This document shows positions 1 to 23,456 of a stretch of 23,456 bases of DNA, piece by piece. The first letter of the stretch is position 1. Every line of letters starts with the position of its first letter. Where the stretch lies: the IMG/VR virus record IMGVR_UViG_3300028602_000008. The stretch is one strand, 5' to 3'. Position numbers and translations under genes: made by a program. Source of the stretch: an uncultured virus (IMG/VR IMGVR_UViG_3300028602_000008). Lineage: Duplodnaviria > Heunggongvirae > Uroviricota > Caudoviricetes. The notes beneath the pieces were generated by a model. That model saw nothing but the letters and a program-made list of their open reading frames with translations. It was not told the origin of the DNA and made no database searches.

Positions 1-225
1 TGTGGATTCCAGTTTTTTCATGGCTGCAGCCAGATTTACTGATATTGCAGGTGCTGATGTTTTAATGGTGGTTGTTTGCGTAGGCGCTGTCGTTTTGAAA
101 GTTAATGTTTTGGTAGTTGTTGGCGTGCTAACTGTTGACCTGGAGGAGCTGCTTGAAGGAAAAGCGGATTGTGCTATCGAGGATACCGCTCCAGATTTAA
201 AAGATAGCGTCTTAAAAGTTGCCAT
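1..225 (-). CDS. Ser/Thr-rich protein, N-terminal part only (runs off the window start)
   Basis: Read manually: ATG at 225, MATFKTLSFKSGAVSSIAQSAFPSSSSSRSTVSTPTTTKTLTFKTTAPTQTTTIKTSAPAISVNLAAAMKKLEST, open to base 1. It is preceded by AAGGAG and abuts the stop of the upstream small ORF (TAAATG). Confidence 0.7.
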   Translation of the reverse strand, partial: MATFKTLSFKSGAVSSIAQSAFPSSSSSRSTVSTPTTTKTLTFKTTAPTQTTTIKTSAPAISVNLAAAMKKLEST

Positions 226-4260: not shown

Positions 4261-4283
4261 TTTATATAGATTTCCTATATAAG
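4261..4283. promoter_or_regulatory. overlapping divergent TATA boxes forming an inverted repeat
   Basis: TTATATAG (4262-4269), ATTTC, CTATATAA (4275-4282). The plus-strand TTTATATA ends 24 nt before ATG 4292, which is leaderless-type spacing. Confidence 0.6.
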
Positions 4284-4291
4284 TGACGGGT

Positions 4292-5470
4292 ATGAAAAGA
4301 ACAAATCCCGGCCGTCCACCCGCAGACGAAGTACATACCGAAGCTGCAAAACAGGTACTGGATGCCAATAAAATCGTCGGTAGTGACAAAACCGATGAAC
4401 TATTGAATCGAGCTAACGAAATGCTGGCAAACACCGCAAAGTCCACATTACTGGATGCAGCAAACCTTAGTGCAAAGAAAGCCGTGGTTCTGGCCAAGCG
4501 AGAATTAAGAGAGGCTCAGGAGGAAGAATCTGATGTTACCCCAAGGGGTGGGAATTTTAAGATAAACGGCATGTCTGCTGACGATATTCGCACCATGGCC
4601 GAAAGTCTGCCAGAAGCACAACGCGAATCTTTTATTAGACAGGCGCTGGGCATGCCGACTGGTGGAAATCCGATGTTAGGAGCATTTCTGCAAAATAAGA
4701 GTCAACCTCAGGCAGTTGCACCCATTGAACATTCTGGTCCGATGACCTTGAGTGAGGCTTTACAGTCCATGATGGGTCTCATGACAATGCAGATGACAGC
4801 CCAACAGGCCAGAGCGGAAGAATGGAGACAACAGCAGGAGTTTGAACGTCAAGCTCACGAACGTCGTTTGGAAGAGATTAGAGCAGCTCGGGGGGAGGTG
4901 CAGCAGCAGGGGCCAAGTCCAGAAGTGGAAGCTCTAAAATTGCAGATGGATTTTTACAAAGACACCATTAAGGAGCATCAGGCACTTATCAAGGAAATGG
5001 CTGCCAATAAGCCCACTGATGCTGTCGATCAGATGAGAAAAGAGAATTTCGAGCTGACTAAAAGCATCCTCGAAGGCCAGAAGGCTCAGATGGAAGAGAA
5101 AGTTCGCAGCATGGAGGCCAGGCTGGGCGATGCAAACCGCAATACAATGAACCTGGGTGAGCTTATCAAGGCAGCCAATGCCAATGGCGCAAATCTACAC
5201 CAGGGCGACTCCACGGACCTGCAGGTAGCAAATGACCATGAGTTTAAAATGAAACAGTTAGAGATACAAGAAAACAGAATAATCAACGAAACGAATGCTA
5301 GACAAGCAGAAGCAGCAGCCCGTCAAGCAGAGGCTGAGAGAACAGTTGAAACTGTGAAAACATTGGCTGCAACTTTAGGAACTGCGTTAGTGCAAAGTCG
5401 ACTGGCCCCGAAAAAAGATCTGGCGACATCCAATCCCCTCATTCAGAAGATTGCTGGGGCAGTGCAATGA
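4292..5470 (+). CDS. Gln/Glu/Met-rich coiled-coil protein
   Basis: 392 aa from ATG 4292 (the track start is GTG 4283). Long heptad-like helical runs and a mildly hydrophobic C-terminal helix. ATGA overlap with the next gene. Confidence 0.8.
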   Translation: MKRTNPGRPPADEVHTEAAKQVLDANKIVGSDKTDELLNRANEMLANTAKSTLLDAANLSAKKAVVLAKRELREAQEEESDVTPRGGNFKINGMSADDIRTMAESLPEAQRESFIRQALGMPTGGNPMLGAFLQNKSQPQAVAPIEHSGPMTLSEALQSMMGLMTMQMTAQQARAEEWRQQQEFERQAHERRLEEIRAARGEVQQQGPSPEVEALKLQMDFYKDTIKEHQALIKEMAANKPTDAVDQMRKENFELTKSILEGQKAQMEEKVRSMEARLGDANRNTMNLGELIKAANANGANLHQGDSTDLQVANDHEFKMKQLEIQENRIINETNARQAEAAARQAEAERTVETVKTLAATLGTALVQSRLAPKKDLATSNPLIQKIAGAVQ

Positions 5471-6956: not shown

Positions 6957-7121
6957 TTACTCGACTGCGGGTTTCTGTCTTGTTTTTTGGGATACTGGGT
7001 GTTCCAATTTCCATTTTGTTATTAAGTTGCGAACTACGGCGCTGGCTGTCGTTCCTTCCTGTCTGCATCTTATTATGAACTCGTCTTTATCAAATTCATC
7101 CATTTTTATTACCAATGACAT
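6957..7121 (-). CDS. ribbon-helix-helix (CopG/Arc/MetJ-like) regulator, 54 aa
   Basis: Not in the track; read manually: MSLVIKMDEFDKDEFIIRCRQEGTTASAVVRNLITKWKLEHPVSQKTRQKPAVE*. It shows a beta strand, helix A, a G-x-T-x-S turn and helix B (VVRxLI). Confidence 0.8.
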   Translation of the reverse strand: MSLVIKMDEFDKDEFIIRCRQEGTTASAVVRNLITKWKLEHPVSQKTRQKPAVE

Positions 7122-7246
7122 GGTATATACAGTGATATTTCAATACTTATAGTTGTCTATAAACTAACATTGTTATATTTCTATACATGCATATTTATAG
7201 GTGTTACTATGTAGATAAGTATCAATCAAATTGTAGAGGTATTGCA
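7122..7246. promoter_or_regulatory. divergent promoter/operator region between the RHH and capsid genes
   Basis: AT-rich. Inverted repeats TTATAG-TTGT-CTATAA (7147-7162) and TAACA-T-TGTTA (7165-7175). TTTATA at 7194-7199 and SD GAGGT at 7236-7240. Confidence 0.55.
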
Positions 7247-8428
7247 ATGGTACAAGGATATGGCAGAAGGGTAATCAATTTTAAGTTCCCCTTTTCGGTA
7301 ACGGCCACCACCCCCGGTGCGTCCGTACAGTGCGGAGACGATCCCGCATATGTTTATGAAGTCGGTCTGGAGCGATACTCCAAGCCCTGGGAATGCGCAC
7401 CCGACATGGTTGCTGAGCTAGAAGGTATCGAGATCATCGGCCCAGTGGACGCTTTTGGTGTCAGAGTCCCGATTAAAAGAGTTGCCCCGGTTATCGCCGG
7501 TAACGATATCGGTGAGAACATTTCTCTGAATGAGCACATGTGCCCCACTCTGAGAGATGGCGCACCCGAGTTAGGCTATCCGTTCAGGGATAGACAGACT
7601 TGCACCAACTTCGGCAAGGCCCTTCTGATGGGTGGAGATGCATCCACTACTTCCGTCAAGATTGGTCCGGGCGAAACTCTGAACTTCAAGGTCGAGTTCC
7701 CCACTCTGGCCCATGGCGGCGACGCAGCTATCGTCAACGACATGGAAATCAAGGCTCACATTGCCTTTGCCAAGGGACAGGATCAGATGCTGAATGCTCT
7801 GAAGGCCAGCTCGTCTGCTGAAATCAGCGCTGCAGCCAATTCTTCCCAGATTCGGCAGCTCGCGATTCTCGGTGATCTTGAGATCGCTGATGTAATTGGT
7901 GCCCAGACTATTGATAGGTCCGTCCCAGCTACGATGGATGAATGGTCCAGCTTGAACATGGGTCAGAACTCCGATGATCCTCAGATCAAGCGTATCATGA
8001 TCTATTCCAAGAACAATCAGCCCACAACTCCCAACCAGGAGATGGAGCTGGTAAGGGATGGTCAGTATGTTCAGGTACCTTTCCAGAACATGCGCTGGAC
8101 TTCCACTGAGAAGAGCTTCTTCCGGTTCACCCATTGCGGTGTCATCCCCCACCCGAACATGTTCCAGCTCAAGTTCGAGAAGGGCAACAGCCGGTACCCC
8201 ATGGTGTTCAACTGTGAGACCGTTGACAACCCGTTCATCATGCCTCAGAAGAGGTTGGTTGCAGACGTATCCTACGGTGGCCCAACTGAACTCGCCAGGG
8301 CATATACCCTGATGAAGGAGATCGGCGCTGTCAAGATCACCGATAACGGTGTAGCCATTCCCGCCTGGGCCGCTGGCGTCAGGGGATTCGAGATCGCTCT
8401 CTGGGGATACCAGTACACTCTCAAGTAA
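7247..8428 (+). CDS. probable major capsid protein (double jelly-roll fold inferred)
   Basis: 393 aa from the SD-supported ATG 7247. Strongest codon bias in the window (ATC, GTC, TTC, AAG, GAG, AAC). Two beta-rich halves joined by a helical linker. Heads the structural module. Confidence 0.6.
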   Translation: MVQGYGRRVINFKFPFSVTATTPGASVQCGDDPAYVYEVGLERYSKPWECAPDMVAELEGIEIIGPVDAFGVRVPIKRVAPVIAGNDIGENISLNEHMCPTLRDGAPELGYPFRDRQTCTNFGKALLMGGDASTTSVKIGPGETLNFKVEFPTLAHGGDAAIVNDMEIKAHIAFAKGQDQMLNALKASSSAEISAAANSSQIRQLAILGDLEIADVIGAQTIDRSVPATMDEWSSLNMGQNSDDPQIKRIMIYSKNNQPTTPNQEMELVRDGQYVQVPFQNMRWTSTEKSFFRFTHCGVIPHPNMFQLKFEKGNSRYPMVFNCETVDNPFIMPQKRLVADVSYGGPTELARAYTLMKEIGAVKITDNGVAIPAWAAGVRGFEIALWGYQYTLK

Positions 8429-8442
8429 AGGTAGGTGAAACA

Positions 8443-9216
8443 ATGCAACTAATATTTCCAATAGGTGACGTACCCCTGTCAACAATTCAGGGAGCATCCG
8501 ATTATTGGGTAAGACTCCCCAGAGGAGCTAAGCCCATAAGAAATATGTACACCGCAGGAACTCCGGCCATCACTGATGGTTATGGCGTCCTGATGGAGTC
8601 CATGAAGATTGACCAGTCCCAGGTTCTCAATGCCTGTGAGGTCGCTTGGGGCGTGGATGTAGATGGAGATATCGTAATTGTAGCTGATCCGGTAGACTTC
8701 AAGGTTGGAACCAACTCTCTGCAGTTTACTATTGCCGCAGGCGCTACTGCCGGTGATACTGCATCTGTAGCTGCTGCGTTCAACGTCACAAACTTCACTC
8801 ATCTGGAGTTCTGGATCAAGAGCAACATCGCCATGGCTGCCGGCTCGCTGACCCTCATCCTTGGTCTGACTAAGGGCGGTACCCCTGTGGCTGCCTGTCT
8901 CACCCCGGCACTGGTTGCTGGCGTCTGGAAGCATTGCAGAGTGCCTCTCGTGTTCACCCTGATAGGCTATGCCGCAAACTGCACACATCTCACTCTGAAC
9001 TATACCGTGGATGTGGGCGCTTGCGTCGTGCATCTGGATGATGTCAAGGCAGTAACTCTGGCGAGATCGGTCGAAGCTCTCAAGGTAGATCAGTTCATCG
9101 AGGATGATACCTACTTTGCCCTGAGTGCCGGCCTTGAGAATGACGACTGCAAGACAGGTCGTATTCTTATCGTCAACTACGAGACTCCTGAAGAAGAGTC
9201 CCGCTGCAGCAATTAA
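8443..9216 (+). CDS. probable abundant virion protein with a galactose-binding-like (CBM) domain
   Basis: AGGTGA SD and the same codon bias as the upstream gene. Motifs DFKVGTNSLQF, THLEFWIKS, AGVWKHCRVPL and VHLDDVK. Confidence 0.6.
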   Translation: MQLIFPIGDVPLSTIQGASDYWVRLPRGAKPIRNMYTAGTPAITDGYGVLMESMKIDQSQVLNACEVAWGVDVDGDIVIVADPVDFKVGTNSLQFTIAAGATAGDTASVAAAFNVTNFTHLEFWIKSNIAMAAGSLTLILGLTKGGTPVAACLTPALVAGVWKHCRVPLVFTLIGYAANCTHLTLNYTVDVGACVVHLDDVKAVTLARSVEALKVDQFIEDDTYFALSAGLENDDCKTGRILIVNYETPEEESRCSN

Positions 9217-9249
9217 GGAGACCCAACGGTCTCCCATATCTCCATTTTT
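9217..9249. terminator. hairpin with pyrimidine/T tail between convergent genes
   Basis: GGAGACC-CAAC-GGTCTCC (9217-9234) lies immediately after the TAA and is followed by CATATCTCCATTTTT. Confidence 0.65.
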
Positions 9250-9602: not shown

Positions 9603-10673
9603 ATGTCATTCGTAAAGCCAGGATACGCTCAGTGCCCCGTGGAAATACTCCCCGAGGTACAGGTTGATCAGGTTACTGTGGGTGGCGCAGAAATCGCAAG
9701 CTACAGCAACTATGGAAAGAGACTATTGGAAATCAGGAACTTGGTATCTTCAAGGCCTGCAGCTAATCCAATCGAAACCATCATCCACACGGATATTGGT
9801 GGTGAAGCCCAGAAGCTCTACAGCGCAGCTCAGCACAGCGTTCGAGTAGATCTAATCGAGGGTGCTGGAAACAAGGTCATGGCCAGGGACTATGCAACCA
9901 TCCAGCAAAAGAGCATAGGCGGTCCAGAAGCCAACATTATCAATCGTTGGCACTTGGTAGTCCGAAACTACAATCTGCTGGATCTTTTCCGTGTAGGAGT
10001 CAAACCTGAAAATGCTCTGACCATGATCGAACCACGTCTGGTTGATGCTGACAGAACTCGCATTCTCGAAGCCGCAAACATACTGGAACGCAGCATTACA
10101 GGCAACCTACCAGTTCACCAGGACCTGCTGAATCCAGCCGTGGAGGAGCAGTTTGAGACGATCAAAGAGGTAGATCGACAGATTCCCGCCCTAGCGGCAG
10201 TCACCGGCAGCCATATCCTTGGTGGCCAGGCGATATCAGTTCCCGCGGGCTACATTGCCGTGGTCTTAGGTTTCGCTGTAGATTCTCAGCAGGTCGTTTT
10301 AAACCTGGCTGGTGGTGCAGGGCCTTTCAACTGTTGCTTCATGTATTTCTCCAAAGACGATCTTGAGAATTACGTCAGGATGGATGCTGCGGGCATGCCA
10401 AACGGCATGGGTGGAGCTGCAGGAACCATTGATTTCGACATGAGATGCTTTATCCCAGTCACCAAAAAGTTCCAGCTCCAGATCGTGAATAACCACGCGA
10501 TTAGTCCCGTTGCAGCCAATCTTCGAGTTAGAATGAGATACGGCCTGAGGAAAAAGACATTAGTAGACCATGAGAAGTGGGGAATCCCCTACTCCACCAG
10601 CGAGGAAGCCGCCGCTGTTGCATTACTGGAGAAATACAAGATCAAGGATGCAGTTTACATTGGCGAGCAGTAA
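9603..10673 (+). CDS. probable second (minor) capsid protein, two beta-rich domains
   Basis: 356 aa from ATG 9603 (the track's extension lies in AT-rich promoter DNA). Beta-helix-beta layout and size are similar to 7247-8428. Confidence 0.45.
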   Translation: MSFVKPGYAQCPVEILPEVQVDQVTVGGAEIASYSNYGKRLLEIRNLVSSRPAANPIETIIHTDIGGEAQKLYSAAQHSVRVDLIEGAGNKVMARDYATIQQKSIGGPEANIINRWHLVVRNYNLLDLFRVGVKPENALTMIEPRLVDADRTRILEAANILERSITGNLPVHQDLLNPAVEEQFETIKEVDRQIPALAAVTGSHILGGQAISVPAGYIAVVLGFAVDSQQVVLNLAGGAGPFNCCFMYFSKDDLENYVRMDAAGMPNGMGGAAGTIDFDMRCFIPVTKKFQLQIVNNHAISPVAANLRVRMRYGLRKKTLVDHEKWGIPYSTSEEAAAVALLEKYKIKDAVYIGEQ

Positions 10674-10682
10674 GGAGCGAAC

Positions 10683-11054
10683 ATGCCAATCTACAGACAT
10701 GTTCAATTTTCAATCTTCCGCAAGGCCTTTGGTGGGGCATTTGACGCGGGATTGCAAAAATATGACATCATGAACGGGGATTCATCTCAGTCTGGACTTG
10801 GTGTACCCGCCAAGTCTATTACGATCTTGAATCATGGGCCGGGAATTGTCTATTATCAGATTAGTTCTAACGGTAGTGATTTGGGGGTTGTAGATGGGAT
10901 TGATTCTGGTCAGGGTAAAGTGTTCCAACCACAGGAGAGTGTCTACACGGCCCAAATATCGCTTTATACGGATAACGCAGGCACATTATTTTCGCTAATA
11001 GCAACTCCTGGTGAATGGACAGATGAAGAGCTGCTGGAGATCCTCGGAGGCTAA
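10683..11054 (+). CDS. small all-beta protein, penton/vertex-like single jelly roll (inferred)
   Basis: 123 aa with AGGAG upstream. PAKSITILNHGPGIVYYQISSNG...IDSGQGKVF...QISLYTD...FSLIA reads as consecutive beta strands. It sits just before the spike genes. Confidence 0.5.
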   Translation: MPIYRHVQFSIFRKAFGGAFDAGLQKYDIMNGDSSQSGLGVPAKSITILNHGPGIVYYQISSNGSDLGVVDGIDSGQGKVFQPQESVYTAQISLYTDNAGTLFSLIATPGEWTDEELLEILGG

Positions 11055-11056
11055 AA

Positions 11057-12085
11057 ATGCCACTCATGGTAATGCTTTCGATTAAAACTGATGTGGATAG
11101 CCTTTACCTCAGCCGTGATGCAGGTGGAACTTTATTTGTCGATGGGGCATTTGCGAGCGCTTCAGACACCAATGACGGGTTTTCCGCCACTTCACCCAAG
11201 CTTACCATCATGGGTGCAATCAATGCTGCAGGGCCAGGCTGGAAGGTCAAGATCGCCCCCGGCACCTATCCGGAGAATGTGATCGTGCCCCCAGGCTATG
11301 ACGGGATCCAGATTCAAGGCCGGGCCAGGGATGGTCCCAACAAAACAAGCATCGCACCAGCCACGGGTAGAGCCATATCTATTACTTGCGGGTATGCCGA
11401 AGTATCCTATCTGGAAGTCGTTGATACAGCCCCGGCCGTTGGCGATCTCCACAACACCTGCATTTACGCTACAGGTTACGGGCATACGATTCACAACATT
11501 GCCCTGTCAGGTGTAAGTGCTGGTTGCTGGGGAATTTGGTACCATGATGTCGATTATGGACTGATCCATGATTGCTATCTTGACGGAACATATAATATTT
11601 CCGGAATAGGTGTCTTCATTGGTGACGATTCCGTTGGCTGCAGGATCTTCCACAACTACATCACCCGCTGGGGTAGTGGAACTGGTAGCGGCTTAGGAAA
11701 TAACGGCTATGGCATTGGTCGTCACATCAATGCACAGCGCCTGGTTGTCGAAGAAAACGATATCATAGACAACTTCGTTGGTGTTTACATGTACCCGCCA
11801 GGTGCAACTGATATTGAAGGTGACTACGTAGGTCATAATAATTTCATGGAGAATGCCAGCTACGATGTTTATGATGAGCATGACTATCCAACATCAGCTA
11901 ACATAGTAGACGAGAATTTCTATGGATACACGGCTGGATTAGTGCCTTGGTATCTCGATTCCGATGGTGACAACATTGCTGACTACATAGTCAGATGCGG
12001 TCCCACGAATCGGGATAAGCATCCCCTCCCAAGTCCATTTAGCTGGAAGAACGGTAAGGGTAATGCTCGTGTTGGAGTGATTTAA
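11057..12085 (+). CDS. right-handed parallel beta-helix (pectin lyase-like, NosD/CASH) protein
   Basis: N-cap SDTNDGFSATSPKLTIMGAINAA...IAPGTYPENV, PbH1-like turns (IHDC, IFHN, VEEN, VGHNNF) and C-terminal DSDGDNIAD...DKHPLPSP. Confidence 0.8.
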   Translation: MPLMVMLSIKTDVDSLYLSRDAGGTLFVDGAFASASDTNDGFSATSPKLTIMGAINAAGPGWKVKIAPGTYPENVIVPPGYDGIQIQGRARDGPNKTSIAPATGRAISITCGYAEVSYLEVVDTAPAVGDLHNTCIYATGYGHTIHNIALSGVSAGCWGIWYHDVDYGLIHDCYLDGTYNISGIGVFIGDDSVGCRIFHNYITRWGSGTGSGLGNNGYGIGRHINAQRLVVEENDIIDNFVGVYMYPPGATDIEGDYVGHNNFMENASYDVYDEHDYPTSANIVDENFYGYTAGLVPWYLDSDGDNIADYIVRCGPTNRDKHPLPSPFSWKNGKGNARVGVI

Positions 12086-15382: not shown

Positions 15383-15823
15383 ATGCCCCTTGATATCGAT
15401 CCGACACAGATAACTGAGAAGAATGTTCCTCAAGTACTGGGTGCTATCGTGGTAGAATTACAGAACATGAATCGCAAACTCGACGAACATGCTATTGAAA
15501 TGGAGTCAAGACTAAATGAAAAAATTAATGTGCTGGCTAATCGAGTCGCTAGTATCGAGGAGAATCGAGCTGCAAATCCAAATTGTCAAATGCATTTAAT
15601 CGAAATAGGTAGAATAGATGCTATCGAAAAGACTCTAAAACTCCATGACACTTTGTTTTGGACACCTTTGTTGGTAACCAAAGAGGATATTCTTCCCTTT
15701 ATGTGGAAGTACAAATACATCGTAGCCGGGGTTACAGCCATCCTGACAGCATGGCTGGCCATCACAGATTGGGCGGTACGCGCCATACAGTGGGGATTAG
15801 TACCGCCAGGTGGAGTACCTTAA
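15383..15823 (+). CDS. coiled-coil protein with a C-terminal transmembrane segment
   Basis: Heptad N-terminal half and hydrophobic YIVAGVTAILTAWLAITDWAV. GAGGT upstream. Confidence 0.7.
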   Translation: MPLDIDPTQITEKNVPQVLGAIVVELQNMNRKLDEHAIEMESRLNEKINVLANRVASIEENRAANPNCQMHLIEIGRIDAIEKTLKLHDTLFWTPLLVTKEDILPFMWKYKYIVAGVTAILTAWLAITDWAVRAIQWGLVPPGGVP

Positions 15824-15848
15824 TATATAAATGTAGGAGATACAAGAT

Positions 15849-16022
15849 ATGATTCGCCCAATCGAGAGAGCGCCCAGGTGGCGCTGGCAAACCATGATTG
15901 ATGATAGAGACCGCCAATGGTTAGATGGAGATCAATCTCTCTATTTTAACCGTATAATGGATCTAGGTCAACCTATTGAAGATAGTGATGCAGCAACCAA
16001 AAAGTATGTAGATGACTCCACC
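15849..16022 (+). repeat. 58-codon N-terminal module, copy 1 of 3 (others at 18181-18354 and 21715-21888)
   Basis: Ungapped alignment by hand gives 47/58 aa identity with copy 3 and 40/58 with copy 2. Confidence 0.95.
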
Positions 16023-17480
16023 CAATCTGTCCTTATAGGAGCCCCAGACCATATTCCCAAAATTCAGGCCGATGGATCTGGTCTGGAAGACTCAGGTGCT
16101 GGAATCTCTGATTTCGAGATAGCCGGTGCCGTTGCTGCCCACACGGTAGCTATTGACCATAGTTTCTTGGCGGATCCTTTTGATATGACAGCCAGGGCTG
16201 CAGATTTCGTCCTTACCTGGGATGATGTTCATGGCAAGTGGATAGCTGCAGCCGCGCCTGGTGCCACTGGTGGTGAAGCAAATACAGCAGACAATATTGG
16301 TACTCACGGTATTGGAGTTTATGCTTCTAAAGTAGCTGCAGAACTTCAATTCCGAAATATAGTGGCCGGCAGCCCAAAAGTTACAGTTACGGCCGGTGCT
16401 TCGGGTGCAGAAACAATTGAAATTGATGTTGATCCAGCCAATATAGAATTAAGTGCGCTTGGGGATGTTGATTTAGCCGGCGTCACAGGAGCTTACGTAC
16501 TGACTTGGGTTGAGGGAGATGGAACCTGGCAGCCTAAAGAAGCCCCCGGTGCATCTGCTGAAGGCGCTACAGGTCCTATGGGTTTGACTGGTCCTACTGG
16601 CCCCATGGGTGCTACCGGCCCAGGCGTTGGTGCATCAGGTGCCACGGGAGCTGCAGGAGCTACTGGTGCCACAGGTCCAGCCGGCGCAACAGGTGCAGGC
16701 CTTACAGGTGCAACGGGAGCTACAGGATTAACAGGCCCGACAGGCCCTGCCGGAGCAGGTACTACAGGCGCAACGGGAGCTACAGGCTTAACCGGTCCAG
16801 CCGGAAGTACAGGTCCAACGGGTCCAGTCGGAGCAACAGGAGCTGCATCCTCAGGAGCTGGAGCTGCTTTCTGGTCAGATGTACCGGGAACCCCAACCAG
16901 GGTAAGCAATACACAGTTCACCATCACCGATGCAGGTAACGCTGGTCTCTACGACTTGAGCTTAGGCGTTGGAACCCTGTTGAAATGGCTGTCCTCGGGC
17001 GGTGATTTCTGTGTTGCTAGGGTTACTTCAGCAACTTACGGGTCTAACGTTGTAACCGTAAACCTCGTCGGATCAACACTGGCTGCAGGGTTTACCAACA
17101 TGCAGTACTGCCTAATGCTCTGTCCGTTTGAGCAAATCCTAATACCCGGATCACAGAGCGTTGCCAATGGGGTAGGCAAAACTTGGTGGGCTGCTCAGGC
17201 CTTCTATCCGATCTCATGTGATGGCCACGTAACCACAGCCGGAGTGACTAATGCCACAACCTGGGACCTCAATGACGATGGTACGACCCTCTTCGGCGGA
17301 ACATGTTGTAGCATTGCCAGCACGGCCGTAGTAACCCTAAATACCCCGGCTGGATCTCCTGCGACACCAGTTGCAGCCGGTAGTGCTGTCACTGCAGATT
17401 GTACAGCCATCAGCACTACCCCCCCGATAGATGCCTATCTCTATCTCTACTACATGCCGCTGGCGTGGAGGTACCGATGA
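15849..17480 (+). CDS. virion fibre 1 (shared N-terminal module, short collagen stalk, C-terminal beta domains)
   Basis: MIRP...RWRWQ...[11 protein letters not shown]-terminus, VLTW repeats, a GGEANTA...FRNI module and about 95 aa of Gly-X-Y. Confidence 0.8.
16563..16847 (+). repeat. collagen-like Gly-X-Y (mostly Gly-Ala/Pro-Thr) repeat, short
   Basis: GAT/GPT/GLT triplets with GxG interruptions. Confidence 0.95.
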
Positions 17481-18180
17481 GCATTGGCCAATTTGGGATA
17501 ATGGGCGGTTTAGTCGCCGCCTACCATTTAAATGCAGATGCAAATGATTTTAGTGGAAACGCTCGGCACGGAACGGGTACAGATATTAACTACGATCCAG
17601 TCACCGGTATTTTAGGTCCCGGCGCTAAATTTAACGGATCCTCGTCAAAGGTAACACTTCCCGCAGCATTATGGACTCTCGCGGCAAATGCTGAATTGTC
17701 AATAGCTGTCGTAATCCAATTACCAGCATCGTCTCCCGGAATACAACCAATCCTGGCACGAGGCCAAGTTCAAGAGAGCGGCGACTACTACGGATTTTGT
17801 TTAGGTGTGAATGCAAACTCGATTTATTATCAGCGAGGCTGTGGATACAGTACATTATATTCGATGTCTGCAACCATGGCCTTCGAATCCTCTAAACGAT
17901 ATCTGATAGGCTTGACCTATGCTCATACCACCACAGGCTACGCTACTCTGTATTGCATTCCTCTGTTTGCGGGTACGAAGATGTCTCAAGGAACCGCTGA
18001 TATGTGGAAAGGGGATGTATCAATTTCCGCACCATATGATCAAGGTTTGAACCTAGGAGCAAACCTCAGAAATACTGCAAATCAGTATTGCGGATTGACT
18101 ATGAACGAATTTCTGCTTTTTAACAAGATACTACCGATGAAATGGTACGTTGATTATGCGGCTTATCTTAGGGGGTTCAA

Positions 18181-18184
<4 letters not shown>
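17477..18184 (+). CDS. LamG/concanavalin A-like domain protein, copy 1
   Basis: [22 protein letters not shown]...GAKFNGSSS...[11 protein letters not shown]. The start at 17477 is supported by an ATGA overlap and alignment with the paralogue. Confidence 0.85.
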
Positions 18185-20939
<2,755 letters not shown>

Positions 20940-20943
<4 letters not shown>

Positions 20944-21671
20944 CATTAGGACAAAAGGGAGCCATGGCCAATTTGGCCTTTGGCTACCATTTAAATGCAA
21001 ATTCAAACGATTTTGCAGGAGGTTTGGTCCAAGATGGAGTAGATACCAATATAACATATGATGCAGCTAATGGTATTCTTGGCCCGGCTGCATCTTTTAA
21101 TGGATCTTCAAGTAAAATTTATTTAGGTTCGAGTGACATAACTACCCCTGTAACCAATGGATCATTCTCCATAATATGTCTTTTTCGAGTGCCTGCAAGT
21201 TTTTCCGTATTCCCTATCATTAGCAGAGGACTTGTTCAAGCTTCAGGATTAACATTTTATGGTATGGATATTTCCATCAATGCTTCAACAGGAATAGCAT
21301 TTTCTCGTTATATCGGAAACACGACGGTATATAATTCAACTTCAGGAAATTATACGTTTAATTCAGGCACAACGTACCTGATAGCTATTACTTATAACCT
21401 AACAACTGGTGCCAACGTATTTTACATTTACCCATTACGTCCTGGTGGAGCAAGTCTGATTGCTAATGGAGCCACACAAAGCAAACTAATAAACATAGCC
21501 TTCCATGCGTCTTATGATGAAGGTTACCATTTTGGAGCAAGATTACGGGCTATATCTCCAATTTGGGGTAAAGGGTTTCTCGGAGAAGTTTTAATATTCA
21601 ATGACATAAGAACTGCTAATTGGATCAACATGTACGCAGCACAACTTAGAGGACTTTTGGATTGGGAGTAA
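20940..21671 (+). CDS. LamG/concanavalin A-like domain protein, copy 2
   Basis: [11 protein letters not shown]...[15 protein letters not shown]...GEVLIFND...YAAQLRG aligns with 17477-18184. ATGA overlap with fibre 2. Confidence 0.85.
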
Positions 21672-21708: not shown

Positions 21709-23456
21709 ATGACCATGATTCGTCCAATTTCAAGAATGCTTCGGTGGCGCTGGCAAACTGTCATCGACGATAAAGACCGTATCTGGTTAGATGGAGATCA
21801 GTCATGCTATTTTAATCGGCTCATGGATCTCGCGCAACCTATTGAAGACAACGACGCAGCGACTAAACGATATGTAGATGACTCCACAGAAGCGACCGTA
21901 ATAGGTAATCCAGGAAATTTACCTGTCATCGATCCAGATGGGAGCGGTCTTCATGATTCATTAACATCACTTTCAGATTTCGAGGCTGCCGGAACTACCG
22001 CACTCCATATAATCACCCCAGGTGCTCATTTGGCATATGCCCCAGCTCACTATGCACGATCCAATATGTGGTGCAGCGTAGGGTTAGTGAATGCCGCCGA
22101 TAGAAGGTCTGTGAAAACTCCGAATCGAGTAACAGTAAATATAAATGAAATTGGATACGAACAAGTTGGGTCGTTGGTATTTGATCTTGACCTTCCAGCT
22201 TCCTGGGATACGATTGCCGGGACAAACTATTCAGTGGCCGCTAACCGTGCTGGAAAGGACTTTTATATATATAGTTGTCAACCAATAGCTGGCAACGTAC
22301 CAGTTTTCGTGATCTCGGCAGCCAAAACTTTCCCAAGTGGCTATGATGCTGTTAATAGCCGTAGAATTGTTCAATTCCATTGTATATGCCTAAGCGCTGG
22401 AGCAATAGCTGGACATCAACTAACTGGATTAATCACAGGTGATATCCTGCCAAGATCATTCCAGGATATCGAACATAGACCAAAAGCCGGTTTCATAGAT
22501 GGTATAGTTTGGGGAGGCGTTACAGATTTCGATATCTTGAATTACGCACCAGTTTGGAAGGCTATCTATATGGCTTCAGGAACTGGGGTCAACACTGCAT
22601 CCATCTTCGGTGCTGCGGCTTCAGCCACGCGAGATTGGAACGCATTTGTTGATGACTTTGGTAAGATTGGTTGCAGGATGATGGATGATGCAGAATTTCA
22701 AGTATTGTGTGCAGGTGTTGAAGAAGAAGTCAACATTGCTGGTTCTGCGAATCCAATAACGACAGGTGGACATGTTAGCACCACTGGTAGGCGACATTTG
22801 TCAAATATCGGCACAGAAGATGACATCGGAGTCTGGTGGCAATGGTTGTCCACCCAGTCGTTCCGAGTAGATTTCGATGGTTCTGTAATGGCGGCTGCAA
22901 AGACTGTTAACATTATCCATGCTGCCGCGCCTGGTGGTAATCCGGTCTATGTAGACTACGATAATGATGGTACTCCATATCTCTGTTGTACCATGGCTAC
23001 CACCACAGTTGATAAGTGGGTTGCATTTTCAACTACCCATAAGGTTTTAATCAAGCATCTTGCAGCCATCCCCGCGACTGCTGTACAGCTATACTTCGAT
23101 GAAGATGCCACACAGCCAAATCGATTGCTGGCTGCAGTTCCTCATCTAAAGAATGTCTATGTCGCAGTTCAACCTAATGCTGGTTATAAACTGCAGATAA
23201 CCTATAATGCGGCTCCCGGAACACCAGGCGTTGCTGTAAACTTCGATGATGGGGCCGATCAACGTTTGGAGTTCATTTCTCCGACATCTGCAACGGGTGT
23301 TATGGATATGGCTTTGGATGCGATCGCTTGGGCATACTACAATTTGGCAGGAACAGTTGGATCGTTGTACATGCAAGGAACGCTAGGCGACGTTAAGCTG
23401 CTCGGCGGCGGCGTTTGGAATAATGCGTCGCGTGCCGGGTCACGGGCGCGTCATGC
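21709..23456 (+). CDS. virion fibre 3: Mtd-like C-type-lectin-fold receptor-binding protein and probable DGR target (3' end truncated)
   Basis: Translated manually in frame +1 with no stop over 582 codons (start 21709 or 21715). The shared N-terminal module is followed by AGKDFYIY, FPSGY..NSRRI..FHCIC, GDILP.S..D..HRP, TTGGH...GRRHLSNIGTEDDIGVWWQW and GDVKLLGGGVWNNASRAGSRAR. Confidence 0.85.
   Translation, partial: MTMIRPISRMLRWRWQTVIDDKDRIWLDGDQSCYFNRLMDLAQPIEDNDAATKRYVDDSTEATVIGNPGNLPVIDPDGSGLHDSLTSLSDFEAAGTTALHIITPGAHLAYAPAHYARSNMWCSVGLVNAADRRSVKTPNRVTVNINEIGYEQVGSLVFDLDLPASWDTIAGTNYSVAANRAGKDFYIYSCQPIAGNVPVFVISAAKTFPSGYDAVNSRRIVQFHCICLSAGAIAGHQLTGLITGDILPRSFQDIEHRPKAGFIDGIVWGGVTDFDILNYAPVWKAIYMASGTGVNTASIFGAAASATRDWNAFVDDFGKIGCRMMDDAEFQVLCAGVEEEVNIAGSANPITTGGHVSTTGRRHLSNIGTEDDIGVWWQWLSTQSFRVDFDGSVMAAAKTVNIIHAAAPGGNPVYVDYDNDGTPYLCCTMATTTVDKWVAFSTTHKVLIKHLAAIPATAVQLYFDEDATQPNRLLAAVPHLKNVYVAVQPNAGYKLQITYNAAPGTPGVAVNFDDGADQRLEFISPTSATGVMDMALDAIAWAYYNLAGTVGSLYMQGTLGDVKLLGGGVWNNASRAGSRARH
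23386..23456 (+). other. candidate DGR variable region, 5' part
   Basis: 48/71 G+C. Scaffold codons are almost A-free and are interspersed with NNT codons (GTT, AAT, AAT, CGT, CAT) in the GGxW...GSR.R motif. Confidence 0.7.

Follow-up and report, generated by a model that had tools for sequence, protein, structure and literature searches.

A 393-residue protein with a predicted double jelly-roll fold as the probable major capsid protein of uncultured viruses with large genomes

Introduction

The window analysed here is a 23,456-nucleotide stretch of DNA from an uncultured virus (IMG/VR IMGVR_UViG_3300028602_000008), whose record is classified in the Caudoviricetes (Duplodnaviria; Heunggongvirae; Uroviricota). 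One gene of the window encodes a 393-aa protein that an earlier note on this DNA described as a probable divergent double jelly-roll (DJR) major capsid protein (MCP) of a tailless virus. The locus raises the question of whether this protein builds the shell of a virus that is labelled as tailed, or whether it has another role in the virion or at the host surface. The gene model, the predicted fold, the conservation of the gene and its neighbours, and the packaging and capsid genes of related genomes are considered here in that order.

Gene model and upstream region

The start of the DJR gene was placed at position 7247, and not at 7187, because 12 close homologues of the protein (58–93% identity) begin at that Met. 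Six of the 12 homologues are exactly 393 aa long, with an MVxGxGR start. A longer frame that opens at 7187 is unsupported, as both the starts and the lengths of the homologues point to 7247, and these two features bear out the gene boundaries that had been proposed. Two ORFs run on the minus strand over the DJR gene and its neighbour, at 7571–8497 (308 aa) and 8479–9237 (252 aa). Both antisense ORFs coincide with a GC3-rich coding strand and are most likely non-genes.

The intergenic gap in front of the DJR gene (Table 1) features two hairpin-plus-T-run sites, at 6959–6972 and 6987–7007, a TATA-like TTTATA at 7194–7199, and a GAGGT that is located 7 nt before the ATG. The TTTATA hexamer occurs 18 times in the window compared to 12.9 ± 3.7 expected, and 14 of 100 shuffles reach 18, which determined that the hexamer is not enriched across the window. 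The gene had been credited with its own promoter. The elements of the gap fit a separate transcription start, and a separate promoter in front of the DJR gene, with its function read from the sequence, is plausible.

Table 1. Features of the window, with positions counted from its first nucleotide
Feature	Position	Strand	Remarks
395-aa Q/E/A/K-rich protein	4283–5470	+	starts the co-directional block; 42–53% identity in 7 loci
Two conserved genes, 119 aa and 308 aa	5467–6736	+	after the 395-aa gene and before the DJR gene
Upstream intergenic gap	6957–7246	+	290 bp, AT-rich; sequence read and scans
DJR gene	7247–8428	+	393 aa
N-terminal jelly roll	7247–7777	+	residues 1–177, predicted model
Helical linker	7778–7840	+	residues 178–198, predicted model
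C-terminal jelly roll	7841–8425	+	residues 199–393, predicted model
257-aa protein	8443–9216	+	directly 3' of the DJR gene
356-aa protein	9603–10673	+	58–70% identity in 7 loci
123-aa conserved protein	10683–11054	+	56–69% identity in 7 loci
342-aa protein	11057–12085	+	DUF1565 (PF07602), E 1.7e-5; TIGR04247, E 1.8e-7, below the TIGR04247 cut-off
Fibre 1	15849–17480	+	collagen-like Gly-X-Y shaft (PF01391); PHROG tail-fibre families; distinct C-terminal head
Fibre 2	18181–20943	+	920 aa; long collagen-like shaft (PF01391, E 4e-48)
Fibre/receptor-binding protein 3	21709–23454	+	runs off the window; PF21916, E 5.7e-11; phrog_11262, E 1e-25

Predicted fold and protein family

The 393-aa protein has no match in Pfam, PHROGs, or NCBIfam, and a tblastn search against 50,697 GenBank phage records found no match. 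An exhaustive HMMER search placed the protein in a family with 52 representative clusters at E ≤1e-3, 30 at 1e-10, and 16 at 1e-30. The members of this family are 330–413 aa long and have the motifs NxxxTTxN and DNGTSIPAW in common. The family profile found only 2 further proteins in a large protein database, and the distant family proteins P0013 and P0049 found nothing among viral contigs when used as single queries. Links between profiles were tested by HMMER searches and one hhalign pair. None of 42 family members matches the Pfam models of P3, of other capsid proteins, or of DUF2961 at E up to 1, and the P3 families PF09018 and PF25514 do not match the DJR protein. The family profile found nothing relevant among PDB sequences, and hhalign gave a probability of 0.3% for the DJR family and PRD1 P3 (a single pair).

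AlphaFold2 used with 64 diverse sequences gave a model with a pLDDT of 92.4 and a pTM of 0.91, and the model obtained with 13 close homologues had a pLDDT of 39.8 and was discarded. The strands of the confident model span residues 5–176 and 201–391, and the helices between them span residues 178–186 and 191–198. This model bears out the two beta-rich halves and the helical linker that had been described from the sequence. The most conserved family motifs are located in the C-terminal jelly roll, with NxxxTTxN at about residue 256 and DNGxxIPAW at about residue 366. The predicted model is a single chain with tandem jelly-roll β-sandwiches, and both domains match solved DJR MCPs. The Z scores of the model put GH172/DUF2961 enzymes level with capsid proteins. 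Foldseek matches are weak, with a best E of 4.6e-4 in PDB and TM values of 0.24–0.38. Language-model features from the Atlas are an independent line that points the same way, and they gave 0.93–0.94 against clusters in which 11–36% of the members carry PRD1 P3 Pfam families. As far as the predicted model can tell, it is almost certain that the 393-aa protein has a DJR fold.

Conservation, codon usage, and gene order

Seven IMG/VR contigs of 44–77 kb carry the DJR gene with the gene order kept. Among the genes of the region, the DJR gene has the highest conservation in these 7 loci, with 75–86% identity compared to 36–73% for 16 other matched genes. Additionally, of the 24 window ORFs it has the most biased codon usage, with an Nc of 44.6 and a GC3 of 0.637, compared to Nc 46.6–61 and GC3 0.27–0.55 for the other 23. 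The codon bias had been called extreme; it is the strongest in the window by both measures, however, the word overstates it. All 8 full-context relatives of the gene are found on viral contigs, where they adjoin fibre and replication genes.

A co-directional block of genes on the plus strand runs from 4283 to the end of the window. The DJR gene had been placed first in a 16-kb structural module. It is the first gene after the intergenic gap, however, the syntenic block starts earlier, at 4283. A membrane segment is predicted for few ORFs of the module. A search for tRNA genes found none in the window or in the relatives G001 and G004, which are described below.

Neighbouring genes and fibres

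The 395-aa protein that starts the block looks helical by eye, it has no family in Pfam or PHROGs, and it is a candidate scaffold or tape-measure-like protein based on its sequence. The 119-aa and 308-aa proteins have no family in Pfam or PHROGs. The 257-aa gene has the second-strongest codon bias of the window and is duplicated in G001, and its product has no family in Pfam or PHROGs and nothing meaningful in PDB. In the archaeal-type relatives, and also in G004, a distant bacterial-virus relative, the 356-aa gene is found together with the DJR gene. Searches of Pfam, PHROGs, NCBIfam, and PDB placed the 356-aa protein in no known family, and its Atlas matches are unnamed clusters only; the protein is a candidate second capsid component. 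An hhalign comparison of the DJR family with the 356-aa and 257-aa families found no relation.

The 123-aa protein is near the PRD1 penton protein P31 in size (126 aa), and it is, as a speculation, a candidate vertex protein. The 123-aa and 257-aa proteins have no sequence similarity to P31, to the DJR protein, or to PDB entries, and no penton protein was recognised by sequence among these two neighbours. The 342-aa protein is probably virion-associated and is predicted to bind or cleave glycans. Searches of PDB with the 553-aa and 490-aa proteins found nothing meaningful.

The three fibre genes have an N-terminal domain of ~60 aa in common (MIRPxxRxxRWRWQ...KKYVDD), and only the first ~60 residues of the fibres are conserved across the 7 loci. 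Two of the fibres are located in duplicated cassettes, each with a ~240-aa partner (17474–18184 and 20940–21671), and the DNA stretches of the cassettes are 71–76% identical. In one wastewater run, DNA contigs feature many skips and back-joints in the collagen-like repeats (16255–20300), a pattern that suggests length variation among strains or collapse in the assembly. The last gene of the window has an Mtd second domain. The Mtd fold is a target of diversity-generating retroelements. No reverse transcriptase was found in the window, where the Mtd-like gene is cut by the window end, or among 62 scanned G001 ORFs.

The related genomes G001 and G004

G001 is a 77,180-bp relative that is rated 100% complete and features an exact 123-bp terminal direct repeat, which may reflect a circular or permuted genome. 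The replication genes of G001 include a primase-helicase and, each with an intein, a family-B polymerase and an XPD-like helicase. The genome also encodes a dCMP deaminase, a thymidylate-synthase-like protein, a radical-SAM enzyme, HNH endonucleases, and an AAA_24/Sak4-like ATPase. Selfish elements are frequent in G001. The inteins, in the helicase and the family-B polymerase, lie within 15503–18097 and 21106–24732. An HNH homing endonuclease gene (46519–47328, minus strand) is located just upstream of the DJR gene in G001, where the window has only intergenic DNA. A gene for MC1, an archaeal chromatin protein, is located at 60857–61291 (L011:3857–4291, minus strand; PF05854, E 1.3e-16) and adjoins the AAA_24 ATPase gene. 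The MC1 homologue may condense the G001 genome, and an MC1-like DNA-condensing protein has reportedly been described in mimivirus in a preprint.

The largest unexplained gene of the virus is a giant ORF that encodes 2,862 aa in G001 (31054–39642), and the window starts inside its N-terminus (1–225, minus strand). The giant ORF features a PEGA domain at its C-terminus, a stretch that matches DUF4197, and a stretch with a sub-threshold match to Phage_portal. The window also encodes a 412-aa protein (453–1691) with a nuclease-like stretch (phrog_452 endonuclease, E 4.5e-5) and a PEGA domain (E 8.7e-10), and G001 has two SNase/PEGA-type genes like this one, on either side of the giant ORF.

An extended motif pattern led to G004 (L019–L021), a 42.4-kb viral contig with 62% GC and a DJR homologue that is 46% identical to cluster P0047 (E 3e-100) and matches the family profile with an E of 2e-72. 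The contig L014, retrieved with a degenerate DNGTSIPAW pattern, is an unrelated tailed phage; this chance match was dropped from all counts. G004 encodes two lysins (Amidase_3 and glucosaminidase), a protein with an SLH domain, a pol III beta clamp, an integrase, and beta-propeller proteins, and it is, as judged by this gene content, a temperate bacterial virus. The record is rated ~90% complete and is without end repeats.

The gene that adjoins the DJR gene of G004 has weak homology to the 356-aa gene of the window (blastp E 9e-5), with conserved motifs all along the alignment of the two. Because this G004 neighbour is a 356-aa homologue, the DJR gene and a gene for a ~300–356-aa protein travel together across the bacterial-archaeal divide. 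Such co-travel would be the behaviour expected of two shell components. An XPD-like helicase (phrog_2488) is found in G004 as in G001, and so is an AAA_24 ATPase, which is a hint of a replication core that is common across the lineage.

Search for packaging and capsid genes

Pfam and PHROG searches of 21 window ORFs found no portal, connector, tail tube, tape measure, or baseplate family, and the claim that the module has no recognisable gene of these kinds held. In G001, 62 ORFs of at least 100 aa were scanned against Pfam, the PHROG scan covered 59 of these, and no true match to a terminase, portal, or HK97 protein was found. PHROG terminase matches in G001 fall on the helicase intein (residues 32–399) and were rejected. 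None of these three proteins was found among 49 ORFs of the ~90% complete G004 record with Pfam and PHROGs. Tailed-phage hallmark genes are normally easy to detect in bacterial phages.

Six-frame searches found no match that reached the cut-off to Terminase_6N (PF03237) in 3 genomes, and none to TerL_ATPase (PF03354) or Phage_capsid (PF05065) in 4 genomes. Terminase_3 (PF04466) gave one sub-threshold match inside the PolB ORF, with 13.3 bits compared to a cut-off of 23.2. This stretch and the Phage_portal stretch of the giant ORF read as noise at the sequence level, yet both were counted against the capsid reading. In three related genomes that are rated complete (70–77 kb), a terminase, portal, or HK97 capsid gene is undetectable. 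A terminase, portal, or tail gene elsewhere on the contig had been named as evidence against a tailless virus, and no terminase, portal, or HK97 match reached the cut-off in 3–4 related genomes at the sensitivity of HMMER, which sets the limit on these absences.

An FtsK/HerA-type ATPase for packaging had also been proposed as a check, and none was found in the 4 genomes. FtsK_SpoIIIE (PF01580) matches none of the 4 genomes in the six-frame searches, and no such Pfam or PHROG match occurs among the 62, 59, and 49 ORFs scanned. The ORFs with a Walker A motif are helicases and the AAA_24/Sak4-like protein only, and the latter is located among replication and recombination genes in G001 and G004. 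The available text of PMC10848233 describes the FtsK-HerA packaging ATPase as present "in most cases" in DJR viruses. The missing ATPase weakens the capsid reading, however, it does not exclude it, because some DJR viruses, FLiP-like ones included, are without a packaging ATPase according to the part of PMC8812541 that was accessible.

The strongest alternative is that these genomes belong to divergent tailed or podovirus-like Duplodnaviria, whose HK97, portal, and terminase proteins are too divergent for HMMER, and that the DJR protein is an abundant accessory virion protein with a role in decoration, in a baseplate, or in receptor binding. This alternative is rather unlikely. All three fibre genes of the module match PHROG families with a tail-fibre or tail-protein label, however, collagen-like vertex spikes occur in PRD1 too. 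The 2,862-aa ORF and a genome of 70–77 kb with terminal repeats are, as we take it, reminiscent of N4-like podoviruses, and the giant ORF contains the Phage_portal (PF04860) stretch. That stretch reaches 14–16 bits (15.8 in the six-frame search and 14.3 on the cut-out segment) compared to a cut-off of 39.1, covers 55 of 321 profile positions, is found in 1 of 4 genomes, and is matched by no PHROG portal family at E up to 0.5. The Atlas clusters nearest to the DJR protein are mostly labelled Uroviricota, the BFVD matches of the model include tail-fibre and minor tail proteins, and several proteins of 300–560 aa have no fold assignment; however, a Walker A and Walker B pair is found in no unassigned ORF. 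Of the tailed-phage genes, that of the terminase large subunit is the easiest to detect, and no terminase at or above cut-off was found in the 4 genomes, one of which is a bacterial virus. Additionally, the highest conservation and codon bias belong to the DJR gene and not to another gene.

Comparison with known double jelly-roll proteins

The predicted model is similar to PRD1 P3 and STIV B345 in that two jelly-roll β-sandwiches and a short helical linker are found in one chain. The DJR protein has no sequence or profile similarity to P3 of PRD1/PR772 (Tectiviridae). PRD1 features a 15-kb genome with the P9 packaging ATPase beside P3, a polymerase that is protein-primed, and numerous small membrane proteins, whereas the genomes described here are 70–77 kb, with no such ATPase detected and few predicted membrane proteins. 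B345 of STIV (Turriviridae, archaeal) also has no sequence similarity to the DJR protein. STIV is a ~17-kb virus of hyperthermophilic Sulfolobus, whereas the DJR family comes from mesophilic wastewater and landfill and includes a bacterial-virus member. PM2 P2, FLiP, phiCjT23, and PBCV-1 Vp54 gave lower scores and have no sequence similarity to the DJR protein; the chains of the PM2 P2, FLiP, and phiCjT23 MCPs are 239–310 residues long, and that of PBCV-1 Vp54 is 401–435 residues long.

The DJR MCPs of ANME-1 viruses (Coyopavirales: Chaacviridae, Ixchelviridae) were recognised only by AlphaFold-type modelling, as stated in the portion of PMC9894754 at hand, and the family described here resembles them as a DJR protein of archaeal type without sequence similarity to known MCPs. 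The same portion of PMC9894754 gives these viruses linear genomes of 10–11 kb, a protein-primed PolB, and a hydrothermal vent habitat, and it is by this description that the DJR family is set apart from them. Prokaryotic DJR viruses are described as small in the accessible text of PMC10848233.

The model is also close to the DJR fold of GH172/DUF2961 cellular glycosidases (8ic8, 8ah3, 4kq7, 7v1v), and the protein could in principle be a virion-associated or auxiliary trimeric DJR glycosidase of this type, which acts on host surface glycans and is not part of the shell. This explanation shares the level Z scores with the capsid reading, however, at E up to 1, PF11175 (GH172/DUF2961) matches none of 42 family members, and it also does not match the window protein. 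The context of GH172/DUF2961 is carbohydrate metabolism, whereas the context of the DJR gene is viral, and DUF2961 is found in cells and not in viruses or beside viral genes in the part of PMC8812541 consulted. A glycosidase role is improbable. It is very improbable that the prediction misleads, that is, that the protein has another β-sandwich arrangement and that the DJR matches reflect common two-sandwich packing only.

Host and habitat

The window stretch was found in metagenome runs of 13 studies, mostly of wastewater, with landfill, aquatic, and bioreactor samples in addition. No run is listed as RNA on its record, and two runs that were guessed to be RNA gave short, patchy contigs on which a ranking of genes is impossible. 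Archaeal-style TATA-like boxes precede several transcription units of the window, at 4261, 7194, and 9574/9587. These boxes and the MC1 gene of G001 are the only basis for an archaeal host; the virus probably infects an archaeon that lives in anaerobic waste systems, and a methanogen is a reasonable guess. Two 13.5-kb contigs (L015 and L016) with a DJR gene that is 76–77% identical are found in MAG bins labelled Acholeplasmataceae and Saccharibacteria. They are probably mis-binned viral contigs and were not taken as evidence for a bacterial host.

Proposed virion and implications

The 393-aa protein is probably the major capsid protein of a tail-less DJR virus lineage with large genomes, and the earlier reading of a divergent DJR MCP is supported. 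The capsid role is assigned because the gene has the highest conservation and the strongest codon bias, because the module bears fibres, and because no rival capsid genes are detectable. There is evidence against this role in the lack of an ATPase and a penton protein, in genomes of 42–77 kb, which greatly exceed those of known prokaryotic DJR viruses, and in the structural tie with enzyme-type DJR proteins.

In the virion that is proposed, the DJR protein would form the shell of an icosahedral dsDNA virus that has fibres but no tail and a genome of ~70–77 kb. Three DJR chains would assemble into a pseudo-hexagonal capsomer, and the capsomers would tile the icosahedral shell, as expected from the behaviour of the family. 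The particle would measure ~85–100 nm for a genome of 70–77 kb. Gene order and conservation suggest that the 356-aa protein may be a second shell or cement component, that one small beta-rich neighbour may be the vertex protein, and that the 395-aa Q/E/A/K-rich protein may serve as a scaffold or size ruler. The three fibres would be interchangeable at one site of the virion, with receptor-binding heads that differ, one of which is Mtd-like. A single attachment site is proposed because the ~60-residue N-terminal domain is common to all three.

A tentative reading, a little short of probable, is that the DJR family marks an undescribed lineage of 42–77 kb with archaeal and bacterial hosts, its own replication genes, and collagenous fibres, and without the FtsK-HerA ATPase. 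Viruses of this lineage would replicate with their own family-B polymerase, primase-helicase, and nucleotide-metabolism genes, they would carry adenovirus- or PRD1-like fibres at the vertices, and their genomes would be several-fold larger than those of known prokaryotic members. The DJR capsid principle would be kept in a genome whose type and size have no described counterpart among prokaryotic members. To our knowledge, large DJR viruses are known only from eukaryotes, and the bacterial and archaeal ones are small. The literature searched, as far as its text was available, describes no prokaryotic DJR virus of such genome size, which is not proof of absence.

If the lineage reading is true, a prokaryotic DJR lineage with genomes of 42–77 kb and complex replication modules would fill this size gap. 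The missing FtsK-HerA ATPase would then imply that a large DJR capsid is filled in another way, and how such a capsid is filled without the hallmark ATPase would become a concrete question. The candidate capsid protein stands at an equal structural distance from viral MCPs and the cellular GH172/DUF2961 enzymes, so on this reading it could branch close to the root of DJR capsid evolution. The labelling of the nearest Atlas clusters, mostly as tailed viruses, is a reason for caution in automated virus taxonomy. The DJR family is widespread in metagenome runs of wastewater, landfill, and related studies. The virome of anaerobic, methane-producing systems is sparse, and the viruses of this family would bring a major virus type to it.
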